Shown piece by piece: positions 50,837 to 63,016 of a DNA stretch of 64,000 bases. Under the pieces are notes generated by a model. That model was not told where the DNA came from and did no database searches. It saw only the letters and a list, made by a program, of their open reading frames with translations. Numbering within the stretch: the stretch's first letter is position 1; each line of letters starts with the position of its first letter. A program made the position numbers and the translations under genes. The stretch is from a bacterium. Its GTDB lineage: Bacteria > Omnitrophota > Gorgyraeia > Zapsychrales > Zapsychraceae. The stretch spans positions 1,619 to 65,618 of the forward strand of contig JAUIER010000021.1 of assembly GCA_030429765.1 (NCBI GenBank), read 5' to 3'.

Positions 50837-51108
50837 GCCCCTATACTAGCGGATAACAGGCGGGAATGTAAGTATTTTTTAGAGTGATAGGCGATCTGGA
50901 GACCAATCCTACTTGCGGCTTGGTGCATCCAAAATCGCACCGGCCGGGTATCTTCAGCCGCGAAACGGGAATGTCAGACTTCAAACTAGATCTGTTCTTA
51001 AAAAGGAAATGAATCGTCCTTATTCCACGTTCCGCCAGATAATTGTTGCTACTTTGCGGATACAATGCTATATTCTTACTGGTAAGATTTTCGAAAAGGA
51101 GGTTTTTC

Positions 51109-51372
51109 ATGATTAAGTTCTCAACTACTAAACTAACGTCTAAGGGGCAAGTAGTCATCCCGGAAGATATCCGTGAACGGCTCGGCCTGAATCCGGGAAC
51201 CCAGTTCATCGTGATGGAGCAGGACGATGCCATTATTTTCAAGATCATCTCTCCCCCGGCCAAAAGTGAGTTGACCAAACTTCTAAAAAATGCCAGAAAG
51301 CAGGCTCGTCAGGCCGGCCTCAAGTCCTCTGACATTGATAAGGCCGTAAAAAAAGTCCGCGCCAAGAGATGA
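51109..51372 (+). CDS. AbrB/MazE/SpoVT-family antitoxin (VapB-like)
   Basis: Starts MIKFSTTKLTSKGQVVIPEDIRERLGL (swapped-hairpin fold), with an AAAGGAGG RBS. Overlaps the toxin gene by 4 bp. Confidence 0.7.
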   Translation: MIKFSTTKLTSKGQVVIPEDIRERLGLNPGTQFIVMEQDDAIIFKIISPPAKSELTKLLKNARKQARQAGLKSSDIDKAVKKVRAKR

Positions 51373-51776
51373 ATGTCATTTTGGATACCAACGTTTTCGT
51401 GTCCGGACTGTTTTTTAAGTCCGGCCCACCTGGCAAGATTATGGATGCCCTCATTGCTGAAAGATTTAAATTGATTATCTCCCCTCCAATCTTCGCCGAA
51501 TACCTTCGAACAGTAGCTGCGTTGAACGCAGATTACCCACAGATAAATACAGAAGCCCTTTTAGATATAGTATTTCTTAAATCTATTCTGTACGAACCGA
51601 TGGAATTATCCGAACCAGTCACTGCCGACCCCAAAGATGACATGTTTATTGCCTGCGCTTTAGCCAGTAAATGCGGATTGATCGTCAGCGGCGATAAACA
51701 TCTTCTCAATGTTTCTGGACATCAGGGCATCAAGGTTTTAAAACCACGCCAGTTCTACGATGAACATCTGAGTTAG
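51369..51776 (+). CDS. PIN-domain toxin (TIGR00305-type)
   Basis: ILDTNVFVSG ... ADPKDDMFIACA ... IVSGDKHLL acidic PIN residues. Confidence 0.7.
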   Translation: MNVILDTNVFVSGLFFKSGPPGKIMDALIAERFKLIISPPIFAEYLRTVAALNADYPQINTEALLDIVFLKSILYEPMELSEPVTADPKDDMFIACALASKCGLIVSGDKHLLNVSGHQGIKVLKPRQFYDEHLS

Positions 51777-51887: not shown

Positions 51888-52931
51888 ATGCTTTTCTCTA
51901 ACCAATTCATCAATCTATTCTCGGAACTCACCCAAAGTCATCTAAAGAACCAAATCGCATTCCTTAAGGTCGAGAATCAAATCCTCCGCAACAAGTGTCC
52001 GTACAAACGCATGGTTTTAACCGACAAGGAACGGAACCGGTTGATCAAATTCGGCCACCCTCTCGGTGGAGATATCAAACAGATTATTTCCATCGTTAAT
52101 TCCAGAACCTTTTACGCCTGGATTCAAAAACAACGCAACCCTAGTTATGGGTCTCAAAGGCGGGGCCGGCCACGTAAACTCACCATAACCATTAAAGAAC
52201 TGATTGTTGAAATGGCAAAGCGCAATAAATGGGGTTACACGAAGATTATCGGTGAACTGAAAAAACTGGGTATTATCAAAACCTCAAAAACGTCGGTTAA
52301 AAACGTGTTGATGGAGTATGGAATTGATCCGTTAAGCATCCGATCTGAAGGATCATGGGACCAGTTCTTAAAGCGAACCTTTCAAACATTATGGGCGTGC
52401 GACTTCTTTGCCAAAACCGTCTGGACTCCCCTGGGCCCCAAAATCTTTTACTGCCTCTTTTTTATTAATGTACGGAGTCGTAAGGTCCATATTGCCGGTA
52501 TAACGACCAACCCTAACAAACAATGGACCTTGACCCAGATAGAGAAACTTAAGTCAACATTTCAGGATGAGCTCGTTGAAAAAGCGGTCCTGATCCGGGA
52601 CCGAGACACTAAGTATTCCCATGAATTTGATAAATTCTTCAAAGATCAGGGCATCAAAGTTTTACCCACCCCCTACCGTTCACCGAATATGAATCCCTAT
52701 GCCGAAAGCTGGGTAGCTACGATCAAACGGGAATGCTTAAATCATTTTATTGTCCTGGGACGAGTGCATCTTGAATATTTGATCAGGGAATTCGTCAGTT
52801 ACTATAATCATCACCGGCCTCATTCGTCGATGAACAATGAACCGTTGACACAATACAAGAAGACCAAGTATGGAAAAATCCTCGCGAAGCCGGTGCTCGG
52901 AGGATTGATTCATGATTATTATATTGAATAA
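51888..52931 (+). mobile_element. DDE transposase/integrase (rve catalytic core with an N-terminal HTH); single-ORF IS-type
   Basis: The DDE-fold region (WACDF ... RDRDTKY ... ESW.ATIKRE) is typical of the rve family. Confidence 0.6.
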
Positions 52932-53375: not shown

Positions 53376-53783
53376 TCATTCGCTTATTGTCATATTCTCT
53401 ATACTCTTGGGGTGCTCCGCTAACCATTGCACGTACCGTACAGGCTCTTCTTCCCATTTCTTAATTCTTCGTTTATTCCACCGATTTTCCAACTTCACTG
53501 TAATTTCATCGAATCTGCTAAGTCGATGAGTAATCACCTCTTTGCTGAATACTTTGGTTTGATCTAACTTTCGCCAATTTTCAATACCAATATTAGAAGC
53601 CTGGGCTTCCTGCATGATAGATAAAGCAATATTAACTTTTTCATCTACTAATTGATTGTTTAGCGTTCGCTGAATAACGAAGTAACTAGCTAATGCTAGC
53701 ACAAGCAATGTGGTGACTGCTAGCCTTCGATTCGACAAGCTATTCAATAACCTCTTTAATTTCAGTTTCCTCTTCTTCTCCAC
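53376..53783 (-). CDS. candidate RHS-toxin immunity protein (hypothetical, membrane-anchored)
   Basis: Sits immediately downstream of, and overlapping, the RHS C-terminal toxin ORF; N-terminal TM helix; AT-rich. Confidence 0.4.
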   Translation of the reverse strand: MEKKRKLKLKRLLNSLSNRRLAVTTLLVLALASYFVIQRTLNNQLVDEKVNIALSIMQEAQASNIGIENWRKLDQTKVFSKEVITHRLSRFDEITVKLENRWNKRRIKKWEEEPVRYVQWLAEHPKSIENMTISE

Positions 53784-54744
53784 AGCAACAATTCCATTCT
53801 ATAACTAACTTCCGGTGAATATTATTACTAGTTTTAGCATTTGCTCTAATTGTCGGCGACCCAGTTGTTGAGATTAATGGACCTGCACGTGTTTCTTCAT
53901 TAAATTGTACTGTATCATTAGGCCAAATTAAATCATCAAACCTTGCATAAAAGGCTAGGCCTTCAATTGTAATTCTACCCTTTGTTCCCAATCCAAAATC
54001 AGACGTCCTCCAATGATCTTCCATGCCTTTCAAAGATGAAGGTATTTTGCCGTGTGCATAGTACCAACGTTCCGTATAGTTAAACGTTTTGCCGTTATCA
54101 CGATTTCCCAAACTACCATAATTAGAAAGCAATTTATCTGTCGTAATATCGTTGTCGTTCTGATCTTTAATGTCTAAAGAATGCACTATTTTCTGAGCTA
54201 CTACACCATTATCCCTTTCATAATTCTCGGCTCCTTTTATAAGCCAGCGAATACCCCACCAAGCCAAACCACACTTGCCGGTCTTAATGCTGGACAGGTT
54301 CACATAGTTCAAAATGAACTTTGGCTTATACGTGGTTAATCCGTCTTTGTCAAAATTCTTTATAGGATCATTTAAAACGAAATTATAAAGACTTTGACCA
54401 TCCTTTACATCAATCGGATCCCTATTCAGCCATCTCCCCGTATCCGGATCATAAAACCTTAGCCCGTAATAGTACAGACCATAGTTATCATCCAGATACT
54501 TTGTACTGAACCGGTATGGATTCCCCGCAGCGACTGCGCCGCTGGCAAGGATAGAATTACCATAAGGATCGTATTCATAGTGTGCGTCTATCGACCCATC
54601 CGAATTGTCGATCAGCTGACCCACATTCCCATTGCCGTCATAGAGATAGGCGTAGGATTTCACCGCGCCTATATCTACTTGTGTCAGAAGGCCTCCGATG
54701 CCGCCTGCGCCTTGCATGGATTGAGAAAGATCCAGTCCCCACAC
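53740..54744 (-). CDS. orphan RHS C-terminal cassette: end of the RHS core (YD repeats, PxxxxDPxGL-like DKDGL) followed by an unknown toxin domain of about 190 aa
   Basis: YLYDGNGNV, YEYDPYGN, YYYGLRFYDPDTGRWLNRDPI and DKDGL motifs. GTG start with no upstream RHS repeats in frame. Confidence 0.7.
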   Translation of the reverse strand: MWGLDLSQSMQGAGGIGGLLTQVDIGAVKSYAYLYDGNGNVGQLIDNSDGSIDAHYEYDPYGNSILASGAVAAGNPYRFSTKYLDDNYGLYYYGLRFYDPDTGRWLNRDPIDVKDGQSLYNFVLNDPIKNFDKDGLTTYKPKFILNYVNLSSIKTGKCGLAWWGIRWLIKGAENYERDNGVVAQKIVHSLDIKDQNDNDITTDKLLSNYGSLGNRDNGKTFNYTERWYYAHGKIPSSLKGMEDHWRTSDFGLGTKGRITIEGLAFYARFDDLIWPNDTVQFNEETRAGPLISTTGSPTIRANAKTSNNIHRKLVIEWNCCCGEEEETEIKEVIE

Positions 54745-54893: not shown

Positions 54894-55616
54894 TCAACTA
54901 TTTAATTGAATATGCTGTTTTAATAATTTTGCCGCCATCCACGCTTCATGATGACAATGCCGAAACTTGTCCTTTGACCCACAAAAACAAAGCGTTTGTC
55001 TGGTTATTTCCTCCGAGGAATGAATAATATCTTGGTTTCGCTTCATTAGTGAGTTTATCGTTTCCAATACTAAAGTTTTCTTATTGCTTATCTGATTAAT
55101 AGTTTCTGCAAAACATTCCAATATGCCGGGATCACCGTGACTGTAATCTTTCCAGGCCCAATGACCATTTTTCTCAAAATAACTTTGAGCGTAAAAGAAG
55201 GGTATCACCAATATAGTAAGCAATTCCACTACTGTATAGTTAGCTGTCAGTTTAATCTTTTCTACGGCTTTGGGGCATAAACAAAGATCGCCTCTCGGAT
55301 TTACATGTAAATCGCCCATCGGTATTTTGCTTCTAACCGAAAATCTTTCTAAACGTTTCCCCGTTTCATATACTTTTGGAACAAAAAGGTCTTTTTTATA
55401 TTCAATTTTAATGTGGTACTTATCCTTAACATAATATGGGGACACCTGCTTCACTTGATCTGGAAAGATTGTATATTTTTCGGCGGCGGCTGGGTCATAC
55501 AGCATATCAAATTCCAGCTCACCATATATAAGTGGCAATCCGTTAATTTCATCGACCGTTAATCCAGAAAATCGTTTATGTAACCATTTTATTTCCTCAC
55601 CTGATATTGTTTTCAT
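54894..55616 (-). CDS. E2-like (UBC-fold) protein with a C-terminal SEC-C motif; candidate Cap2-like E2-only component of a CBASS operon
   Basis: The HVNPRGDLCLCP motif resembles the E2 HPN...G.ICL active site. The C-terminal CFCGSKDKFRHCH resembles a SEC-C motif. It follows the CD-NTase gene with a 3-bp gap. Confidence 0.45.
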   Translation of the reverse strand: MKTISGEEIKWLHKRFSGLTVDEINGLPLIYGELEFDMLYDPAAAEKYTIFPDQVKQVSPYYVKDKYHIKIEYKKDLFVPKVYETGKRLERFSVRSKIPMGDLHVNPRGDLCLCPKAVEKIKLTANYTVVELLTILVIPFFYAQSYFEKNGHWAWKDYSHGDPGILECFAETINQISNKKTLVLETINSLMKRNQDIIHSSEEITRQTLCFCGSKDKFRHCHHEAWMAAKLLKQHIQLNS

Positions 55617-55619
55617 GGG

Positions 55620-56831
55620 TCATTGAACCAAATGCCTCCCCGATGGCTTGGAATTTACAACGATAGGGCCGGTATATAGTGAATCTTCTATCTTGTTACT
55701 GGATATTCCCTCTATCCTTTCAAGAGATTTTGCGTTGATTCTCGAAGAGAAGCCGCTCCTTATGTCCTCTAGCAGTTCCTCTAAATCAACCGAGGCTCCT
55801 AACTTTTGAAAATCGGATTTAGCTTTCTCCAACCAGTTCCAAAAGTGCTTTTCAAGTTCGGGCTTCTTCAACCATTTGTCTGCAAAATCTTCTCCACCAT
55901 CAATTCTTTTCGGATTCGCTGGATTCGGCACCTTAGGAAATTCTTTGTTCACATAATTTCCCATATTAGACAGGATACTATTCATAGCATCATACAAATT
56001 CGATTCACCATTATATGCTTTCGCCGCCAACGTTGTGATAAGTATTGATGCGGGTTTAAGTTCATGGTTATCCTTAAACGTTTGATCACGATGCCGCTTT
56101 AATATTTGAACACAACGCTGAAGGGGTGTTTTCCACATAAATGTTGGCAATTCCTCGATATTTGCCGCTTCGTAAAGTTTGATACGTTCAGCAAGAAATT
56201 GCTCTGCTAATCTAGCCCTAGATTCAAACCATCTAGCATATCCTTCCGGATTACTGATTAGCCAGCGGTCACAAATCTGGTCATATTCCGGATGTCGATC
56301 ATCTGTAATGTTCACCGTTAAACCAGAAATGGCTTGAGATAAGCTTTCGCCTACCCCTGATCTAATCAAGTAATTTAGAATTTCTGCTCGTTTAGAAGAG
56401 TCCGCAGGGATACATGGTACTATATCCATATAAAAACTTAAATCGTCAGCATATTTTAATCGCCAGCAACGATGCTTTTCTTCAATTGGTGATTTTATCG
56501 AGTTGTAATCACGGTACGCCTCAATTTCTTTTCCAATAAGCCGTTTTAGATAGCATTGGGTATGCGTATGTGGAAAAATACCCTCTGTGAGTTCGCATGC
56601 TAAATCCAAGTCGTAAGGCGCATTTTCATCAACGGGATATGTAGCTGTTCCTAATCGAAACGACCCTTGAGGAAAAATATGTGGTTTGTTGATTTTACAA
56701 TTGGCCCCATCTCGTCTAAGCCATCTTGCCATATCTTCATATCTAGACCTTGCTCTTTCGTAAGCTGAGTCCGGCAACTCTAAAGACTCGGCTATTGACT
56801 CTAATATTTTGCTAATTAGTTGTTGTTTCAC
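55620..56831 (-). CDS. cGAS/DncV-like nucleotidyltransferase (CD-NTase, SMODS-type), CBASS cyclase
   Basis: GSFRLGTATYP...DLDLA pol-beta NTase motif (GS...[DE]h[DE]h) and a typical N-terminal helix (SAYERARSRYEDMARWL). Confidence 0.6.
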   Translation of the reverse strand: MKQQLISKILESIAESLELPDSAYERARSRYEDMARWLRRDGANCKINKPHIFPQGSFRLGTATYPVDENAPYDLDLACELTEGIFPHTHTQCYLKRLIGKEIEAYRDYNSIKSPIEEKHRCWRLKYADDLSFYMDIVPCIPADSSKRAEILNYLIRSGVGESLSQAISGLTVNITDDRHPEYDQICDRWLISNPEGYARWFESRARLAEQFLAERIKLYEAANIEELPTFMWKTPLQRCVQILKRHRDQTFKDNHELKPASILITTLAAKAYNGESNLYDAMNSILSNMGNYVNKEFPKVPNPANPKRIDGGEDFADKWLKKPELEKHFWNWLEKAKSDFQKLGASVDLEELLEDIRSGFSSRINAKSLERIEGISSNKIEDSLYTGPIVVNSKPSGRHLVQ

Positions 56832-56840
56832 TTTATCCTC

Positions 56841-57776
56841 CTAAAGCTTGTGTTCAGGTTCAAATGGATCGGCTTTATGATCCATAAATTTATTTTTGAA
56901 CAATGGTACGACGCTTCGACTAAAACTGGCCGCCTTGCTTAACAAATCTTTCTCCGACAATTTATCAAGTTCAAATAATTGGTCTGGAACTTTTGGATCA
57001 ACTCTTAACACATTATCTTCTCCCAATAGGAGTGATATTTGAGCGTTAACTCCCATACTTTGACCTCGCAGGGCTACTTGTATTGCTTGTTTTTTCCATT
57101 GCCACAGCCCGCCTCTGTTTAAATTCTCCGGCCTATGCACTACTTGGTCAGTGGTGCCGAGGCTCAAGATTCGTATTTGCTCCAAAGATATACCCAGAAA
57201 TGATATAGCTTCAACAACTCCAATCATTGAAGGATTATTTGCCCAAACGCCACCGTCGATATGTCGTATATGATCAATTTCAGTACATGCTGGAAAATAG
57301 GTTGGTGCGGCACTTGTTGCTAAGGCCACCTTCCACGCCGGGACTTTAAAATCCCTCCCCAATCTATCATGGTGAGCGGTTTTAAATAAGTACACGCCGT
57401 CATCTCCGATGTTATATGATGGAATTACTAACCTGTTACTACTCTCACCAAATAACCTGTCTCCAAAACAATTCGGATCTCTTAATGCCTCTTTTAACGG
57501 TTCTTGAGCATATTTGTTCCGAAATAAATTTGTTCGCTTGTTACCGAAGATTGATTTACCTTTATTTACATAAAAATTTACGATTTCTCGAGGATGAAGT
57601 CCCAACCCAAGACCAATTGCAATAATACCCCCGGTAGACGTTCCTAATATCAAATCAAAATGTTCACGAATTGAAATTTTTAGATCGTTTTCCCAGTGGG
57701 CTAACACAGCCGCTGAGAATAAACCTTTGATACCTCCTCCATCTAATGATAATATTTGAAATTTTTTGTCAGCCAT
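56841..57776 (-). CDS. patatin-like phospholipase (CapV-like CBASS effector)
   Basis: DGGGIKG oxyanion motif, GTSTG nucleophile elbow, and DGG catalytic Asp. Confidence 0.8.
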   Translation of the reverse strand: MADKKFQILSLDGGGIKGLFSAAVLAHWENDLKISIREHFDLILGTSTGGIIAIGLGLGLHPREIVNFYVNKGKSIFGNKRTNLFRNKYAQEPLKEALRDPNCFGDRLFGESSNRLVIPSYNIGDDGVYLFKTAHHDRLGRDFKVPAWKVALATSAAPTYFPACTEIDHIRHIDGGVWANNPSMIGVVEAISFLGISLEQIRILSLGTTDQVVHRPENLNRGGLWQWKKQAIQVALRGQSMGVNAQISLLLGEDNVLRVDPKVPDQLFELDKLSEKDLLSKAASFSRSVVPLFKNKFMDHKADPFEPEHKL

Positions 57777-57806: not shown

Positions 57807-58100
57807 TTAAATCACTTCTCGTTGAAATGTCGTGTTTTTACTTTGTTTAGCAACTTTCTTAAATGCTGATTGCTGTTTTAAATCTCTACTGCTATTGACT
57901 GAGTCTTTCGTTTCAACTTCAATAATTTTCCGTTGTGTACCTTTTTTGGCAATAACGTCTGGCCGATATCCACCAAAAGTCTTAGGCTTAGAAAATCCGG
58001 GCACGTCGGCGCTGACATCATATCCTAGTTGTTGAAACTTGTCGGCAAGCTGCTTAACTTTACGGTTGTGCTTTCCTTGATTTGAACTATTTCGGGGCAT
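57807..58100 (-). CDS. small hypothetical protein with a possible PD-(D/E)xK nuclease-like core
   Basis: A ...GYRPDVIAKKG...IIEVETKD pattern (D ... E.K) in 97 aa. Confidence 0.3.
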   Translation of the reverse strand: MPRNSSNQGKHNRKVKQLADKFQQLGYDVSADVPGFSKPKTFGGYRPDVIAKKGTQRKIIEVETKDSVNSSRDLKQQSAFKKVAKQSKNTTFQREVI

Positions 58101-58713: not shown

Positions 58714-59646
58714 TTACCTTGCACTGTCTTTCTCCCGTGGGTGGGTCTTTTGGTGGGTTTTGCGTAGATCGGTGATATTTAAACGCACATAATGCTTGAG
58801 CGTGTCCAGCGATTCATGGCCCAATAGTTCTTTGACGTGGTAAATGTTGGCCCCGGCCCGGATCATTTCAGTGGTGCAACTGCGCCGGAACGTATGGCTT
58901 GATACCCGCACATCAAAATCCAAATTATCCGTATATTTCTTAAGCCAGTTTTTAATGATGTGATACGCACAACGGTTGCCCCGCTCCGTTACAAAAAGGG
59001 CTTGCTCACGGGGATTGCTTATCAAAAACGGCCTGATCCCGACTATGTAACTTTCCACATACCGTAAAGCCGTCTTGCCAATCGGCACGATACGGTCTTT
59101 ATTGCCCTTGCCATGCACCAAAGCCGTACCGTGATCAAGATTAACTTCTACCACATCAAGCCCCAACACTTCACTCACCCGTAAACCACAGGAATACATC
59201 AACTCCAAAAGTGTGCGGTTGCGGTAACCGATTAATGTTGTCGTATCAATGCTGTTAAACAACTGTTTTACCTGCGTGTGAGTTAGGACGTTTTGCGGTA
59301 GCAAGCGTGGCATCTTAACCCGCTTTAATGCTTTGGGAATATCCTTAAGCACATAACCCCGTACTGCCAGATAAGTCAGCCATCCCCGTACACTGTTAAT
59401 CCGAATATTCATGGTGCTGGGCTTTAACGGTAATCCTTTTACCGTACGCCAGTTTAATAAATGGGCGTGCCATGCGTCGATATGCCGGATATGGATTTGT
59501 TCGGGCGTATCAACCTGTTGGTACAATGTCATCCACTGGATAAACCCGTCCACCGACTTGCAGATTTTCTTAACGGTCATCTCGCTGTAATACTGCGCCC
59601 GCAGGTGTTGTAAATATTCCAGTTTTAATTCATCCAATGTCTTCAT
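58714..59646 (-). CDS. tyrosine recombinase/integrase (XerC/D-like)
   Basis: R...HxxR...Y catalytic residues (HTFRRSCTT ... LLGHESLDTLKHYV). Start reset to MKTLDELK so that it abuts the upstream recombinase. Confidence 0.8.
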   Translation of the reverse strand: MKTLDELKLEYLQHLRAQYYSEMTVKKICKSVDGFIQWMTLYQQVDTPEQIHIRHIDAWHAHLLNWRTVKGLPLKPSTMNIRINSVRGWLTYLAVRGYVLKDIPKALKRVKMPRLLPQNVLTHTQVKQLFNSIDTTTLIGYRNRTLLELMYSCGLRVSEVLGLDVVEVNLDHGTALVHGKGNKDRIVPIGKTALRYVESYIVGIRPFLISNPREQALFVTERGNRCAYHIIKNWLKKYTDNLDFDVRVSSHTFRRSCTTEMIRAGANIYHVKELLGHESLDTLKHYVRLNITDLRKTHQKTHPREKDSAR

Positions 59647-60555
59647 TGCCCCGGCCTTGTCTTTTTGTGTGTTTTGATCATATCCGTGATCCGTATCTGT
59701 AAGTATTGCGAAAGTGATTTCAATGAGGCGTGGCCTAACAACATTTGCAGCTGTACCGGGTGCGCCCCGTTCATCAGCATATGCGTGGCACATGCCCGTC
59801 TTAGACTATGCGCCGAAATACTCTTAAGAATGCCTGCTTCTTGTACATACGCCCGGATCATTTGATCCACCCGTGTCCCGCTGATTGCCCGCCCGTCTTT
59901 GGTCAACCACAACTCCGCTAAATCTTCTTTGTTGGCTATTAGTTTCTGACGGGCGTCGTTGATGTATTCTTTTAGCCAGCGTCTTGCGTGTTTACCTAAC
60001 GGCACCATCCGTTCTTTACGCCCTTTACCGAACACACGAATCCGGCCCCTTTCAAAATTTACGTCCTGCGTTCGCATGGATAAAAGTTCTCCTCGGCGCA
60101 CGCCTGTCGTATACATTACCTCAAGGATCGCCCGGTCACGCACCCCGAATACCGTTGTCGTGTCCGGCATGCTTAACAGTTGTTCCATCTCTTTTTGAGT
60201 CGGCACTGGCTGTAAATGACGATTAGCCCGGGGAATCGTTAATTGATCCGCCGGATTAAAAAAGATAAACCGCCCTTCCTCCAGAAAATCGTCTGATACT
60301 CCACAAATATCCGCTAACGCTGTTGACCGTACAACCCCGTTCAAAAATATGTCCCCGGTAACTTTCCAGATCGCTCAACTGCACATCAGCCAGACGGTCA
60401 CAGCCCGTACCGTTTAGATAGACCAGTAAATCCACAACCGCTTGTTGACGGAGGGTGACGGTTCTAACGCTGTAATTCTGTTGCCGGATCGAAGCGATAA
60501 ATGCTTGTAATTCTTCGACCCCGAATCCTGTATAGGGTGGTTTGGCTTTTCGCAT
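59643..60555 (-). pseudogene. second tyrosine recombinase, split into two ORFs by a +1 frameshift at a C4/G4 homopolymer (about 60335-60338); either a pseudogene or a sequencing error
   Basis: The N-terminal SAM-like domain ORF (60256-60555) and the catalytic-domain ORF (59643-60344) overlap. Removing one G restores ...HIFERVVRSTALADI... Confidence 0.6.
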
Positions 60556-60721: not shown

Positions 60722-63016
60722 CTAGGCTTTGAGTTCTTGGATATCAGTTAATCCTAATAGGAACTTCTCCCCGCTTTTACCCTGTCCTTCATACGCCAAT
60801 CGGTAACAGTAACGCATACCGTTACGCCCGGCCTGAACAATCACATACTCAAACTCGATTAACTCCCTTAAATGAATGTGTAACCGGGTATTGCTCCATC
60901 CCGTGAACTCCCGGATATCCCGACGGCTGAATGTTACACCTGATCGGCTAGGCGCCTCGTCTTTTAAATCTTTGATTTTATGCTCGATCATGTCATCTAG
61001 CTGGATCAAAAGGTCCCGGCTAGGCTGTGAGAGTTCATCCAACGACCTGCCCAAAACTTCATGGGCTAACTTGTTGGTAATCTCGATATCCACAATATCC
61101 ACTTCGATGAACGGAATGGAATTGCCGTTTTTATTTTCATATTTAACCTCTTTGACCATCTGCCGTAAAAAGGCCACTGTCTTTATTAAGTTCAAGTATT
61201 TTGGTTGATCTCGCCGGCTCTGTAACCGATCATCCCCGTATGTTAACTTATCGGCGTATGGATTCTTGACCGCCATGTTCTTTAACAACCGTTGAAAATT
61301 CCTGTGCCGTTTAATAACATTTTCAATTTGTACGTTGTGCGTTGGCCCATCGGATAAATGATTCTTCCGTTGGAAATTCAGGATTTTCCGGGTCTGCTCA
61401 CGGCTTTCATCAATGGACGTTACGAAAAACCGGGATTTGGTTTCAGGGTCTATTTTGGGGTTGGTCGTCGTTAAAAATACAGCTGTCGGCCCCTCAACCC
61501 TGTTTTCCATAGTGGTTAATTTCCCGGTCGCTAAATCCTTAATCGTGGATTCACTGGCAAGGCTCCTCGCACTGATTAAATTCCGTATGGCATAACTGGC
61601 GTCTTCGGCCCCGTCGCCTTCTTCCAATGCCAATACTTTGTGCTTCAATGATTGGGCGTCCTTATAGAACAATGCTTTTCCTGAAAGGCTCGTTAGCTTG
61701 CGCAAATCTTCTTCCGGGCAAAATGTACAGACCGCATCCTGTAAGGCTGTCTTGCCTGCCCCTGAACTCGACATAATCAATAACGCCAAAGGCACGTCTC
61801 TTTTACGGCTGGTCATAACAAGATACCCCAATAATTTGTTAGGCTCCTCACCTACGAGTCCGCACACTTCAAAATCCTTGATGATCTGCTCCATTAAATC
61901 GGGGCGCTTGCCGAATTCTTCCGCTTCCCTTTTCTCCCGTTCGCTCATACACTCTAAAACGGATATATCGGCCTTATCTCTGCCCGGCTGGTATTTCTCA
62001 CAAGCCACCATTAAACGGGTCACATCACTTTCGATGGTTTCAGGGGATTGAGCGAAAATCCGGCATATATCTTGGATCAATGCTTTGCGTGCCCTCGCCG
62101 TATAAAAATCCAAAGTATCCACGTGCAATTTCCCGGCATGCTTAACCCGTACCGTCGCCCTTAACCGCCTTGCGGACTTGGCGAGTCCAATCACCTGATA
62201 TTTCCGCTGTCCATAGCAGACCGATATATCCGCATCTGGATCACCGTCCGGATCGTCCACACGTTTATTCTGCAAACTTTCATTGATATCCGCATCCAAG
62301 AAGGATGTTAACTGCTCCCGCCCCTCAGCTATTAAATAGCTGTTGATGCTATGATCCATCGGCAACTGCCTGACTTGGCAGTTAATCGCATGGTCATTAA
62401 ATAGTTCGACAAGGTTGGTTTCCTGTCCGTTGCCGTTAACAATCATGATGTTGCTCACTCCACAGTCTTTAAAGAGTTTCGCATCTTCATGGCTAACTGA
62501 ATATTCTCCTACTGTTGCAACCACATTAAAGTAGCCTACACTGGCAACGCTTAAGGCATCTATCACGGATGATACTAGTACAATATTTGGGTACGTCTTA
62601 ATAACTCCCGTATTCCATAATCCAGAGGGTTGACTAGGCAAGTAAACAGGAGTTTCCTGTCCTGCTTTAGTACAGTAACCGCATAATGTCCTGATATTGC
62701 CTTCAAAATCATACACCGGGATAACCAGACAATTCTCAAACCGTTCTTCTGCTTTTGCATCTAAAATACCTGTCTGAACTAAATCATCAATAATCTGTCC
62801 CTTACGGGGTAATATCTGCCTTAATTGACCATCGGAATATCCAATGGCGTATCTATCCCATATCCCGGTATCGGTAATCCCTTGTTGATTAAGAAAGTCC
62901 CGTCCTTCGCTCGTATCGGCTAAATTCTTGGCATATACCGACACTACCTTGTCTAATAACTGCCTGACCTTTTCCTGAGAAACACAACTCTCCCTAATCT
63001 CCTGCTTACTTGTCAT
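60722..63016 (-). CDS. replication primase-helicase-like protein: toprim-like central domain plus a C-terminal P-loop (SF3-like) NTPase
   Basis: Walker A SSSGAGKT, Walker B VLALEEGD, a TTN motif, and a toprim-like segment with NGNG in place of DxD. Confidence 0.5.
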   Translation of the reverse strand: MTSKQEIRESCVSQEKVRQLLDKVVSVYAKNLADTSEGRDFLNQQGITDTGIWDRYAIGYSDGQLRQILPRKGQIIDDLVQTGILDAKAEERFENCLVIPVYDFEGNIRTLCGYCTKAGQETPVYLPSQPSGLWNTGVIKTYPNIVLVSSVIDALSVASVGYFNVVATVGEYSVSHEDAKLFKDCGVSNIMIVNGNGQETNLVELFNDHAINCQVRQLPMDHSINSYLIAEGREQLTSFLDADINESLQNKRVDDPDGDPDADISVCYGQRKYQVIGLAKSARRLRATVRVKHAGKLHVDTLDFYTARARKALIQDICRIFAQSPETIESDVTRLMVACEKYQPGRDKADISVLECMSEREKREAEEFGKRPDLMEQIIKDFEVCGLVGEEPNKLLGYLVMTSRKRDVPLALLIMSSSGAGKTALQDAVCTFCPEEDLRKLTSLSGKALFYKDAQSLKHKVLALEEGDGAEDASYAIRNLISARSLASESTIKDLATGKLTTMENRVEGPTAVFLTTTNPKIDPETKSRFFVTSIDESREQTRKILNFQRKNHLSDGPTHNVQIENVIKRHRNFQRLLKNMAVKNPYADKLTYGDDRLQSRRDQPKYLNLIKTVAFLRQMVKEVKYENKNGNSIPFIEVDIVDIEITNKLAHEVLGRSLDELSQPSRDLLIQLDDMIEHKIKDLKDEAPSRSGVTFSRRDIREFTGWSNTRLHIHLRELIEFEYVIVQAGRNGMRYCYRLAYEGQGKSGEKFLLGLTDIQELKA

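Follow-up and report, generated by a model that had tools for sequence, protein, structure and literature searches.

A putative single-E2 CBASS operon with a patatin effector and a knuckle-bearing E2-like protein in a bacterium of the Omnitrophota

Introduction

The canonical type II CBASS, DncV-CapV-Cap2-Cap3 of Vibrio cholerae, combines a cGAMP-type cyclase with a patatin effector and subjects the C-terminus of the cyclase to ubiquitin-like regulation (Cap2 being an E1-E2 fusion and Cap3 a JAB protein). Another architecture, described as "type II-short" or "E2-CBASS", has a single E2 and neither E1 nor JAB; to our knowledge, only one E2-only CBASS, that of Serratia, has been dissected so far. 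In the Serratia marcescens system (SmCdnG-SmE2 with a 2TM-SAVED effector, PDB 8hsb; Yan et al., bioRxiv 10.1101/2022.05.25.493364; Xiao et al., PMC12948482), a UBC-fold E2 of about 160 aa, whose catalytic Cys is preceded by a His, accompanies a long clade-G cyclase, which has a folded helix plus three-stranded sheet as its E2-binding motif and a flexible C-terminus with a Gly followed by one residue. Clade G is predominant and cyclases are long in E2-CBASS generally, and BdCdnG, like SmCdnG, comes from such a system (PMC12948482). The two-gene CdnG-Cap5 system of V. cholerae 365-96 (PDB 9woo), in which VcCdnG produces 3'2'-cGAMP and the effector is a Cap5-like SAVED-HNH nuclease, is described in a paper that does not discuss an E2 (PMC12804361). 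Type II-short E2s are also catalogued in PADLOC (CBASS "E2" models PDLC00859, 00865, 00871 and 00872).

The locus described here lies in a window of 64,000 nucleotides (the whole stretch of DNA that was analysed), for which an earlier note had proposed a three-gene CBASS-like operon resembling type II-short. It shares with the V. cholerae DncV operon the pairing of a cyclase with a patatin phospholipase and, presumably, a control of the cyclase C-terminus by ubiquitin-like means, but it has no E1 domain and no JAB/Cap3, and its cyclase is of clade G and not of DncV's clade. With the Serratia system it shares a lone E2 (neither E1 nor JAB being present), which is of the UBC fold and has the Cys and upstream His, as well as a long cyclase of clade G; the C-terminus of the window cyclase is likewise presumed to be flexible and has a Gly near its end. 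It differs in its effector (patatin versus 2TM-SAVED), in the length of its E2 (240 aa), in a C-terminal helical extension of about 90 residues with a CxCx8CH knuckle that SmE2 lacks, and in having five residues instead of one after the tail Gly, and the folded E2-binding motif is not predicted in its cyclase; no sequence similarity to SmE2 is detectable. The closest solved cyclase is VcCdnG, although the window has a phospholipase where V. cholerae 365-96 has a nuclease; Cap5-like effectors occur in the nearest relatives of the window operon.

Results

Three ORFs were found, all on the minus strand and exactly where the earlier note had placed them: a CapV-like patatin phospholipase effector of 311 aa (56841-57776), a clade-G-like CD-NTase (cGAS/DncV-like cyclase) of 403 aa with a GTG start (55620-56831), and an E2-like regulator of 240 aa (54894-55616). 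None of the three is truncated relative to its homologs, no catalytic or metal-binding residue is lost, and PADLOC models assign the proteins, at scores far above chance, as CBASS effector, cyclase and E2. The whole operon is compact (2.9 kb), with intergenic gaps of 9 nt (patatin to cyclase) and 3 nt (cyclase to E2), correcting the 10 and 4 bp given before. Shine-Dalgarno sequences are present as GGAGG overlapping the patatin stop codon and as GGGAGG ahead of the E2 ATG, while scans for promoters and terminators gave results no better than for shuffled sequence. Scans of the E2 protein and of neighbouring genes detected no E1 or JAB, as the earlier note had held, and a ThiF/E1 region is absent from the 240-aa protein; judged by its gene content, the locus is not a canonical type II CBASS with Cap2 and Cap3.

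The assignment of the effector as CapV-like was borne out by model searches. The protein matched Pfam Patatin above the gathering score (1.5e-24), the PADLOC CBASS effector phospholipase model at 7.3e-106, the NCBIfam CBASS_lipase equivalog with 268 bits (cutoff 200) and CapV-type phospholipases in the PDB at 5.5e-41. The patatin motifs are present: the oxyanion DGGG (57732-57743), the nucleophile motif GTS47TG (57630-57644) and the catalytic D174GG (57246-57257).

The cyclase matched Pfam SMODS and DncV-like_NTFase, both above their gathering scores, and the PADLOC cyclase model PDLC00780 at 5.9e-119, whereas its score against the NCBIfam cGAS model (73.6 bits) was under the cutoff of 150. 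The GS and DxD motif of a nucleotidyltransferase, claimed previously, is there as G56S57 (56658-56669) and D74xD76 (56601-56615), together with D136 (56418-56432), and the catalytic residues did not vary among 30 homologs. In the PDB, the matches at E <= 0.01 were VcCdnG (9woo, 2.4e-107; about 55% identity over residues 7-378), SmCdnG (3.4e-26) and BdCdnG (5.8e-11), with no other clade matched at that threshold; in its 403 aa and its exclusively CdnG relatives the protein agrees with the long clade-G cyclases of E2-CBASS. The AlphaFold (AF2) model (pLDDT 84) ends, as a monomer, in helices 350-361 and 367-374 followed by a disordered tail (376-403, pLDDT < 50); the folded E2-binding motif of SmCdnG is not predicted in it, and the tail could fold only upon E2 binding. 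For EcCdnG a phage-protease activation loop has been described (PMC12991175), of which no clear counterpart was found in the window cyclase, its model having only one short low-confidence loop near 301-320.

The E2-like protein can be aligned with its homologs from residue 1, which indicates that its correct length is 240 aa, although the record for P0001 gives 203 aa. Seven PADLOC E2 models matched it at E <= 1e-15 (best 9.3e-30; PDLC00865, 00872 and 00871 from 9e-30 to 1.5e-26), across residues 63-230 including the knuckle, although the SEC-C subfamily to which it belongs is a divergent branch (best about 100 bits, partial coverage). In Foldseek searches with its AF2 model (pLDDT 87), the top matches were almost all of the UBC/UEV fold, among them UFC1, the UEV domain of TSG101 and SmE2 (8hsb_B), with probabilities of 0.90-0.99 but modest further figures (E 0.02-0.2, target-normalised TM 0.45-0.54). 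The segment that had been suggested as an E2 active site, H104-V-N106-PRGDL-C112-L-C114 (55275-55307), was confirmed as such a candidate: hhalign aligned H104-x-N106 with the HPN motif of UbcH5B, and C112 with the catalytic Cys85 of that protein, at a low overall probability (8.6%). Both alignments of homologs show H104 and C112 without variation, and H160-G161 (within 55131-55145) is invariant too; across the wider family, C114 can be G or T. The predicted nucleophile is C112 and the predicted general base H104, a pair that parallels H87/C101 of SmE2 (bioRxiv 10.1101/2022.05.25.493364). No E2 family of Pfam matched the protein, and sequence searches of the PDB, run both with the E2 itself and with two profiles of its family, returned only zinc-knuckle peptides of SecA and YchJ and no E2, neither SmE2 nor Cap2, so that the E2 identity rests on the PADLOC models, the fold match and the motif register.

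The predicted SEC-C-type knuckle, C210-F-C212-GSKDKFRH-C221-H222 (C210-x-C212-x8-C221-H222; 54951-54989), barely exceeded the Pfam SEC-C cutoff (PF02810; 20.5 bits versus 20.4). Its four ligands are invariant in 24 homologs, and C210, C212 and C221 also over a wide alignment. The earlier note had singled the knuckle out as unusual, which holds insofar as none of the E2s characterised to date has it, but it is not peculiar to this locus: in a family comprising about 2,000 clusters, 129 of 144 full-length representatives contain CxCx(5-12)C[HC], and a knuckle-bearing relative of 219 aa matches PDLC00859 over its full length (1.8e-82). The knuckle typifies a large E2 family, a related form of which PADLOC already lists as a CBASS E2. 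Most likely the knuckle would coordinate a metal ion and stabilise the C-terminal extension. We found no structure of, or experiment on, the knuckle-bearing class in the literature; a lactococcal plasmidome paper that mentions both SEC-C and type II CBASS was set aside, its SEC-C protein (Rugutis) being unrelated to its CBASS.

Homologs of the E2 are always encoded directly downstream of a partner gene, and the order effector-cyclase-E2 is found again in distant phyla, where the place of the effector is taken variously by patatin, Cap5-like SAVED-HNH, Cap4/SAVED or small TM proteins. Such swapping of effectors is typical of CBASS. In nearly every locus with a readable partner gene, the gene upstream of the E2 homolog closes with a shared tail, GPxxxN-xx-P-x-x-[P/R/Q]-[W/H/Y] followed by 2-7 residues, carried not only by cyclases but also by ThsB-type TIR proteins and one MBL-fold protein. 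In the window cyclase it corresponds to residues 388-403 (55623-55670), GPIVVNSKPSG398-R-H400-LVQ, a presumed tag for recognition and processing by the E2; a PDB search with this tail alone gave nothing meaningful. The Gly stands five residues before the end, which would fit a removal of the trailing residues to expose it. Among the 120 closest cyclase homologs the tail ends were KPW (64), RPW (28), GRH (16, the form of the window), SPW (6) and others (6), and at least two variable residues always trail the W or H. The "conserved C-terminal glycine" reported for E2-CBASS appears, in the sequences compared, only in the window's own subclade (PSG398-RH).

With most of the wider family having K or R at this position and then P-W, Gly-dependent ubiquitin-like chemistry may not apply to this E2 class. 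The same CBASS operon might then be read differently, its E2 reading the conserved P-x-x-[P/R/Q]-[W/H/Y] tail as a cue for docking or for cleavage, either as a tail-specific cysteine protease or transpeptidase that cuts past the aromatic residue or His, or as a non-covalent clamp that keeps the partner enzyme inactive until infection. It would be in line with the position equivalent to G398 being G in only 16 of the 120 homologs, against about 100 that have K, R or S there (an equivalence with G406 of SmCdnG that is an assumption, the register of the two tails not being established), with the invariant part of the tail being the P-W that follows, or R-H in the window subclade, and with the grafting of the same kind of tail onto ThsB-TIR and MBL-fold partners. 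Moreover, G406R in SmCdnG abolished the linkage (bioRxiv 10.1101/2022.05.25.493364), so that K or R at the equivalent site would misfit the published chemistry. Nevertheless, the window subclade does carry the Gly and the catalytic His/Cys pair of the SmE2 type is conserved, and for this operon we regard a Gly-independent E2 as unlikely.

The surroundings of the operon are those of a mobile island. GC content is 0.39 in its patch and 0.51 across the window's first 50 kb, and the neighbours of the operon include an AHJR-like gene, an orphan RHS toxin tip, recombinases (one tyrosine recombinase apparently frameshifted) and an IS transposase. The AHJR-like gene, 30 nt upstream, was considered as a fourth member and rejected as a conserved operon partner, because it has only 9 homologs and these stand beside unrelated cassettes (MmeI-like RM, HTH/Gp49 genes, a 517-aa SEC-C protein); nor is it related to the DUF2188 gene that related operons have at the same position. 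A decaying, nonfunctional remnant among mobile debris would agree with the low GC and the broken neighbours, but the full-length ORFs, the intact catalytic and metal-binding residues and the retained ribosome-binding sites and coupling argue against it, as does the fact that defence systems usually reside in such islands, and we hold it to be very improbable. That the 240-aa protein is an unrelated SEC-C metal-binding protein beside a two-gene (type I) CBASS is hardly credible, for although NCBI names one homolog just "SEC-C metal-binding domain-containing protein" and the sequence searches of Pfam and of solved E2s were negative, the PADLOC E2 models, the UBC/UEV matches including SmE2, the HPN/Cys register and the constant position of the gene behind a partner with a conserved tail all speak for an E2.

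Discussion

The earlier note had made its reading depend on an NTase/SMODS match for the cyclase gene and a UBC fold for the E2 gene; both were found, so that "type II-short-like CBASS" is the right label. The three-gene locus belongs to an already described architecture and therefore adds another member and no new kind. From the analysis as a whole, we consider it likely that the three genes form an intact single-E2 CBASS operon (type II-short/E2-CBASS) that works as follows.

By homology, the three genes would be translated as a coupled unit, and the E2 would bind the cyclase by its disordered C-terminal tail. To trim the last few residues and to hold the cyclase as a covalent adduct, the E2 would rely on C112 together with H104 and, probably, H160; this would prime or restrain the cyclase, as SmE2 does to SmCdnG (bioRxiv 10.1101/2022.05.25.493364; PMC12948482). 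Upon phage infection the cyclase would produce a cyclic dinucleotide, most likely 3'2'-cGAMP as VcCdnG does; product specificity may differ even between cyclases that are 55% identical. The cyclic dinucleotide would activate the patatin, membrane lipids would be degraded and the cell would die before phage release.

For the family, a broader idea may be put forward, which we consider possible but on balance doubtful. The knuckle-bearing E2s may represent a portable regulatory module that recognises a transferable tag some 16 residues long, which has been attached to signalling enzymes unrelated to one another (CD-NTases of various sizes, TIR proteins of the ThsB type and one MBL-fold protein), and possibly processes it without dependence on a C-terminal Gly, unlike every described ubiquitin-like system including the published E2-CBASS; the G-R-H of the window, as opposed to the K/R-P-W of the majority, would then be a derived flavour. 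A literature search for TIR or Thoeris paired with an E2 found no relevant title or abstract, an absence that is no proof of novelty.

The locus alone changes little, being one more E2-CBASS that PADLOC or DefenseFinder would pick up. However, the rules taken from Serratia (an E2 of about 160 aa, a terminal Gly and a folded E2-binding motif) misfit a much larger branch of E2s, characterised by the zinc knuckle and a partner tail that mostly lacks the Gly and contains P-W. The occurrence of the tail on TIR proteins suggests that control of the E2 type may reach beyond CBASS to Thoeris-like signalling, and the window operon, compact and with a Gly-containing tail, would be a convenient bridge between the two tail types.

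The operon and its class

The three genes lie on the minus strand at exactly the coordinates proposed in the earlier note: a patatin phospholipase gene (56841-57776, 311 aa), a CD-NTase gene with a GTG start (55620-56831, 403 aa) and a gene for an E2-like protein (54894-55616, 240 aa), although they are separated by 9 nt and 3 nt rather than by 10 and 4 bp. A GGAGG sequence overlapping the stop codon of the patatin gene and a GGGAGG ahead of the E2 ATG make the three genes look translationally coupled.

By sequence, the 311-aa protein is a patatin phospholipase (Pfam Patatin 1.5e-24; PADLOC CBASS phospholipase effector 7e-106; NCBIfam equivalog "CBASS cGAMP-activated phospholipase" 268 bits, cutoff 200) with the motifs GTS47TG and D174GG both intact, and its nearest solved relatives in the PDB are CapV-type enzymes (5.5e-41). 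The nucleotidyltransferase identity proposed for 55620-56831 held, with Pfam matches to DncV-like_NTFase and SMODS, a PADLOC cyclase match (6e-119), and G56S57, D74xD76 and D136 invariant among 30 homologs. The PDB matches of this cyclase at E <= 0.01 were three clade-G enzymes only: VcCdnG (9woo; 2.4e-107, ~55% identity), SmCdnG (3.4e-26) and BdCdnG (5.8e-11). VcCdnG, the nearest characterised cyclase, produces 3'2'-cGAMP (PMC12804361).

Neither an E1 domain nor a JAB gene was found in the E2 protein or its neighbours, as the earlier note had stated, and its type II-short-like CBASS reading was borne out: an effector, a long clade-G cyclase and a lone E2 make up the "E2-CBASS" class characterised in Serratia marcescens (bioRxiv 10.1101/2022.05.25.493364; PMC12948482). 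The locus is real, its interpretation was right, and it is an ordinary representative of a known class. In Serratia, the E2 shortens the cyclase at its C-terminal end and attaches G406 either to C101, as a thioester, or to K159, as an isopeptide; cyclase-to-cyclase conjugation increases cGAMP output, and defence depends on the E2 and on both its Cys and its His (bioRxiv 10.1101/2022.05.25.493364; PMC12948482).

The cyclase tail and the proposed mechanism

The protein identities, catalytic residues, gene coupling and synteny come from the sequences themselves. For the chemistry, product, trigger and phenotype we reason by analogy with SmCdnG-SmE2 and VcCdnG: the E2 would engage the C-terminal tail of the cyclase and probably trim and conjugate it via C112 and H104; upon infection the cyclase would synthesise cGAMP, probably the 3'2' isomer, which would activate the patatin, with membrane destruction and abortive infection as the outcome.

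A "highly conserved C-terminal glycine" is reported for E2-CBASS (bioRxiv 10.1101/2022.05.25.493364; PMC12948482). The window cyclase ends in PSG398-R-H400-LVQ (55623-55670). Among its 120 closest homologs (P0038-P0157), the tail core is KPW in 64, RPW in 28, GRH in 16, SPW in 6 and other in 6, always followed by at least two variable residues; the GRH minority is the window's subclade. Given the K/R-P-W majority, the reported glycine, though found in the window, is no general property of this cyclase/E2 branch. The main rival keeps the CBASS identity but gives this E2 class non-Gly chemistry or non-covalent clamping; cleavage of the window tail could possibly fall after G398 or after H400, or the tail may simply be bound. 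An AF2 monomer model of the window cyclase predicts disorder for residues 376-403 and shows nothing like the folded E2-binding motif of SmCdnG, a helix plus beta-sheet. In the E2 itself, a wide alignment leaves H104, C112 and H160-G161 unchanged whereas C114 varies, which makes C112 the likely nucleophile, and the H104/C112/H160 set mirrors H87/C101/H152, which are essential in SmE2 (Yan et al., bioRxiv 10.1101/2022.05.25.493364).

The E2-like protein and its knuckle

Seven PADLOC E2 models matched the 240-aa protein at E <= 1e-15 (best 9e-30). With 24 homologs as input, AlphaFold gave a confident model (pLDDT 87) that has an N-terminal helix, beta-sheet, active-site loop and long crossover helix, as expected of a UBC fold, followed by a helical extension and then the knuckle. 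The best Foldseek matches of this model in the PDB were almost all UBC/UEV proteins (UFC1, TSG101-UEV), with SmE2 of the Serratia CdnG-E2 complex at rank 3, at modest scores (probabilities 0.90-0.99, target-normalised TM 0.45-0.54). A profile alignment to human UbcH5B, of low overall probability (8.6%) and so a lead and no test, paired H104-V-N106 with H75-P-N77, C112 with the catalytic Cys85, and VPKVYET with PPKVAFT. That the protein is no E2 is poorly supported: Pfam reports a SEC-C motif only (20.5 bits, cutoff 20.4), and the PDB sequence searches with the single protein and two family profiles returned no E2, only SecA/YchJ knuckle peptides, but the PADLOC models and the UBC/UEV matches uphold the E2 claim made for 54894-55616. 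The NCBI copy (P0001) has 203 aa and starts at M38; since homologs align from residue 1, with W11, L19 and G32 invariant, and a 240-aa copy is present in Logan assemblies, the database start appears to be 37 codons too late.

The SEC-C-like knuckle had been noted as unusual. It is indeed absent from SmE2, the sole single-E2 protein studied, and no mention of it on these E2s was found in the literature searched, but it is common to a large E2 family rather than specific to this locus. C210, C212, C221 and H222 are invariant in the 24 homologs, and the three cysteines remain so in a wider alignment including relatives of 211-219 aa, where the knuckle reads CPCxC-x5-C-x2-H. An exhaustive profile search placed 2,039 cluster representatives in the family at E <= 1e-3 (255 at E <= 1e-30), and CxCx(5-12)C[HC] occurs in 129 of the 144 full-length top representatives. 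The 219-aa knuckle-bearing form is a full-length match to PADLOC E2 model PDLC00859 (1.8e-82), so a related form is already catalogued as a CBASS E2, and PADLOC alignments of the window E2 also extend across the knuckle; prevalence and matches together make it a hallmark of the family.

Genomic surroundings

The operon (39% GC, compared with 51% in the window's first 50 kb) sits in a mobile, low-GC patch, at whose edge a toxin-antitoxin pair of MazE and PIN type (51043-51776) and an IS transposase that has an rve integrase core (51888-52931) lie on the plus strand. Some 150 nt past the E2 stop codon begins an orphan RHS C-terminal tip lacking the RHS repeat body (Rhs_assc_core 9.6e-22), followed by an overlapping 135-aa ORF that could be an immunity gene (together 53376-54744, minus). 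Beyond the patatin gene, also on the minus strand, come two tyrosine recombinases side by side (58714-60555), of which the second seems to be frameshifted, with its 99-aa N-terminal ORF and its 233-aa catalytic ORF lying in different frames, and a protein of 764 aa whose N-terminal domain is of the DnaG primase type (60722-63016); no tRNA gene was found in 45-64 kb. The recombinases, the primase-like protein and the GC drop at ~51-58.6 kb look like an integrative element carrying defence genes. A decayed remnant is a poorly supported reading of the operon, whose catalytic motifs are intact.

An AHJR-like PD-(D/E)xK protein (57807-58100, minus, 97 aa; Pfam 1.3e-8; RPD...EVETK) is encoded 30 nt ahead of the patatin gene and has its own AGGAGG ribosome-binding site; further upstream lies the best promoter-like site (58343-58316), from a scan that did no better than on shuffled sequence. 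We rejected it as a CBASS component because its few homologs (only 9 found) adjoin unrelated defence-like cassettes (MmeI-like RM, HTH/Gp49 genes or a 517-aa SEC-C protein). The gene may instead be a sign of a hotspot for defence cassettes.

Related operons and tail-bearing partners

Among the related loci, E2 homologs always directly follow a partner gene, often overlapping it, and the effector varies: patatin (the window, L013, L017, L027-L029), Cap5-like SAVED-HNH (L001/L005, L030, L032), Cap4/SAVED (L004) or small TM proteins, a shuffling typical of CBASS. The window's nearest operon relatives (L001/L005, L030, L031, L032) combine the Cap5-like effector with a further pair of conserved genes downstream of the E2 (e.g., L030:6783-7984), one nucleoside 2-deoxyribosyltransferase-like (162 aa) and one 4HFCP_synth-like (~243 aa), both without a PADLOC match and absent from the window. 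Many operons carry a 77-aa DUF2188 gene (PADLOC candidate PDC-S16, 5e-36), usually just before the effector (L027:3817-4050, L028:6896-7129, L029:1093-1326, L002:4266-4499), a position taken in the window by the unrelated AHJR-like gene. Many are also preceded, upstream of the effector, by a gene of at least ~205 aa ending ...IQGVV... (L002, L007, L010, L015, L016, L018, L019, L021, L023, L024; in L002 with precomputed Pfam Peptidase_S24 and, weakly, LexA_DNA_bind), in L001 instead by a divergent Peptidase_M78 gene (116-463); these may be transcriptional control modules, and the window has no equivalent.

Unexpectedly, at nearly every locus with a readable upstream gene, the partner ends in GPxxxN-xx-P-x-x-[P/R/Q]-[W/H/Y] plus 2-7 variable residues. 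The same tail terminates ThsB-type TIR proteins of ~200 aa (Pfam ThsB_TIR 1.5e-26; PADLOC ThsB/PDC-M50B), which take the cyclase's place directly upstream of the E2 match in L012, L016, L019 (5381-5989), L020 and L023, loci from Patescibacteria and a few other MAGs; in several, a 130-140-aa TM protein precedes the TIR (PDC-M50A where scanned). An MBL-fold protein of 360 aa (L017:4911-5993; weak Lactamase_B match, 8e-4, below the Pfam cutoff), found once and flanked by a patatin gene and an E2 homolog, ends in KKQPSKPWLNG and makes a third class of partner with this tail, unrelated to the other two. A tail-bearing TIR next to a knuckle-bearing E2 suggests that a Thoeris-like signalling enzyme is under E2-type control. 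It is the family comparison, rather than the locus itself, that holds the interest.
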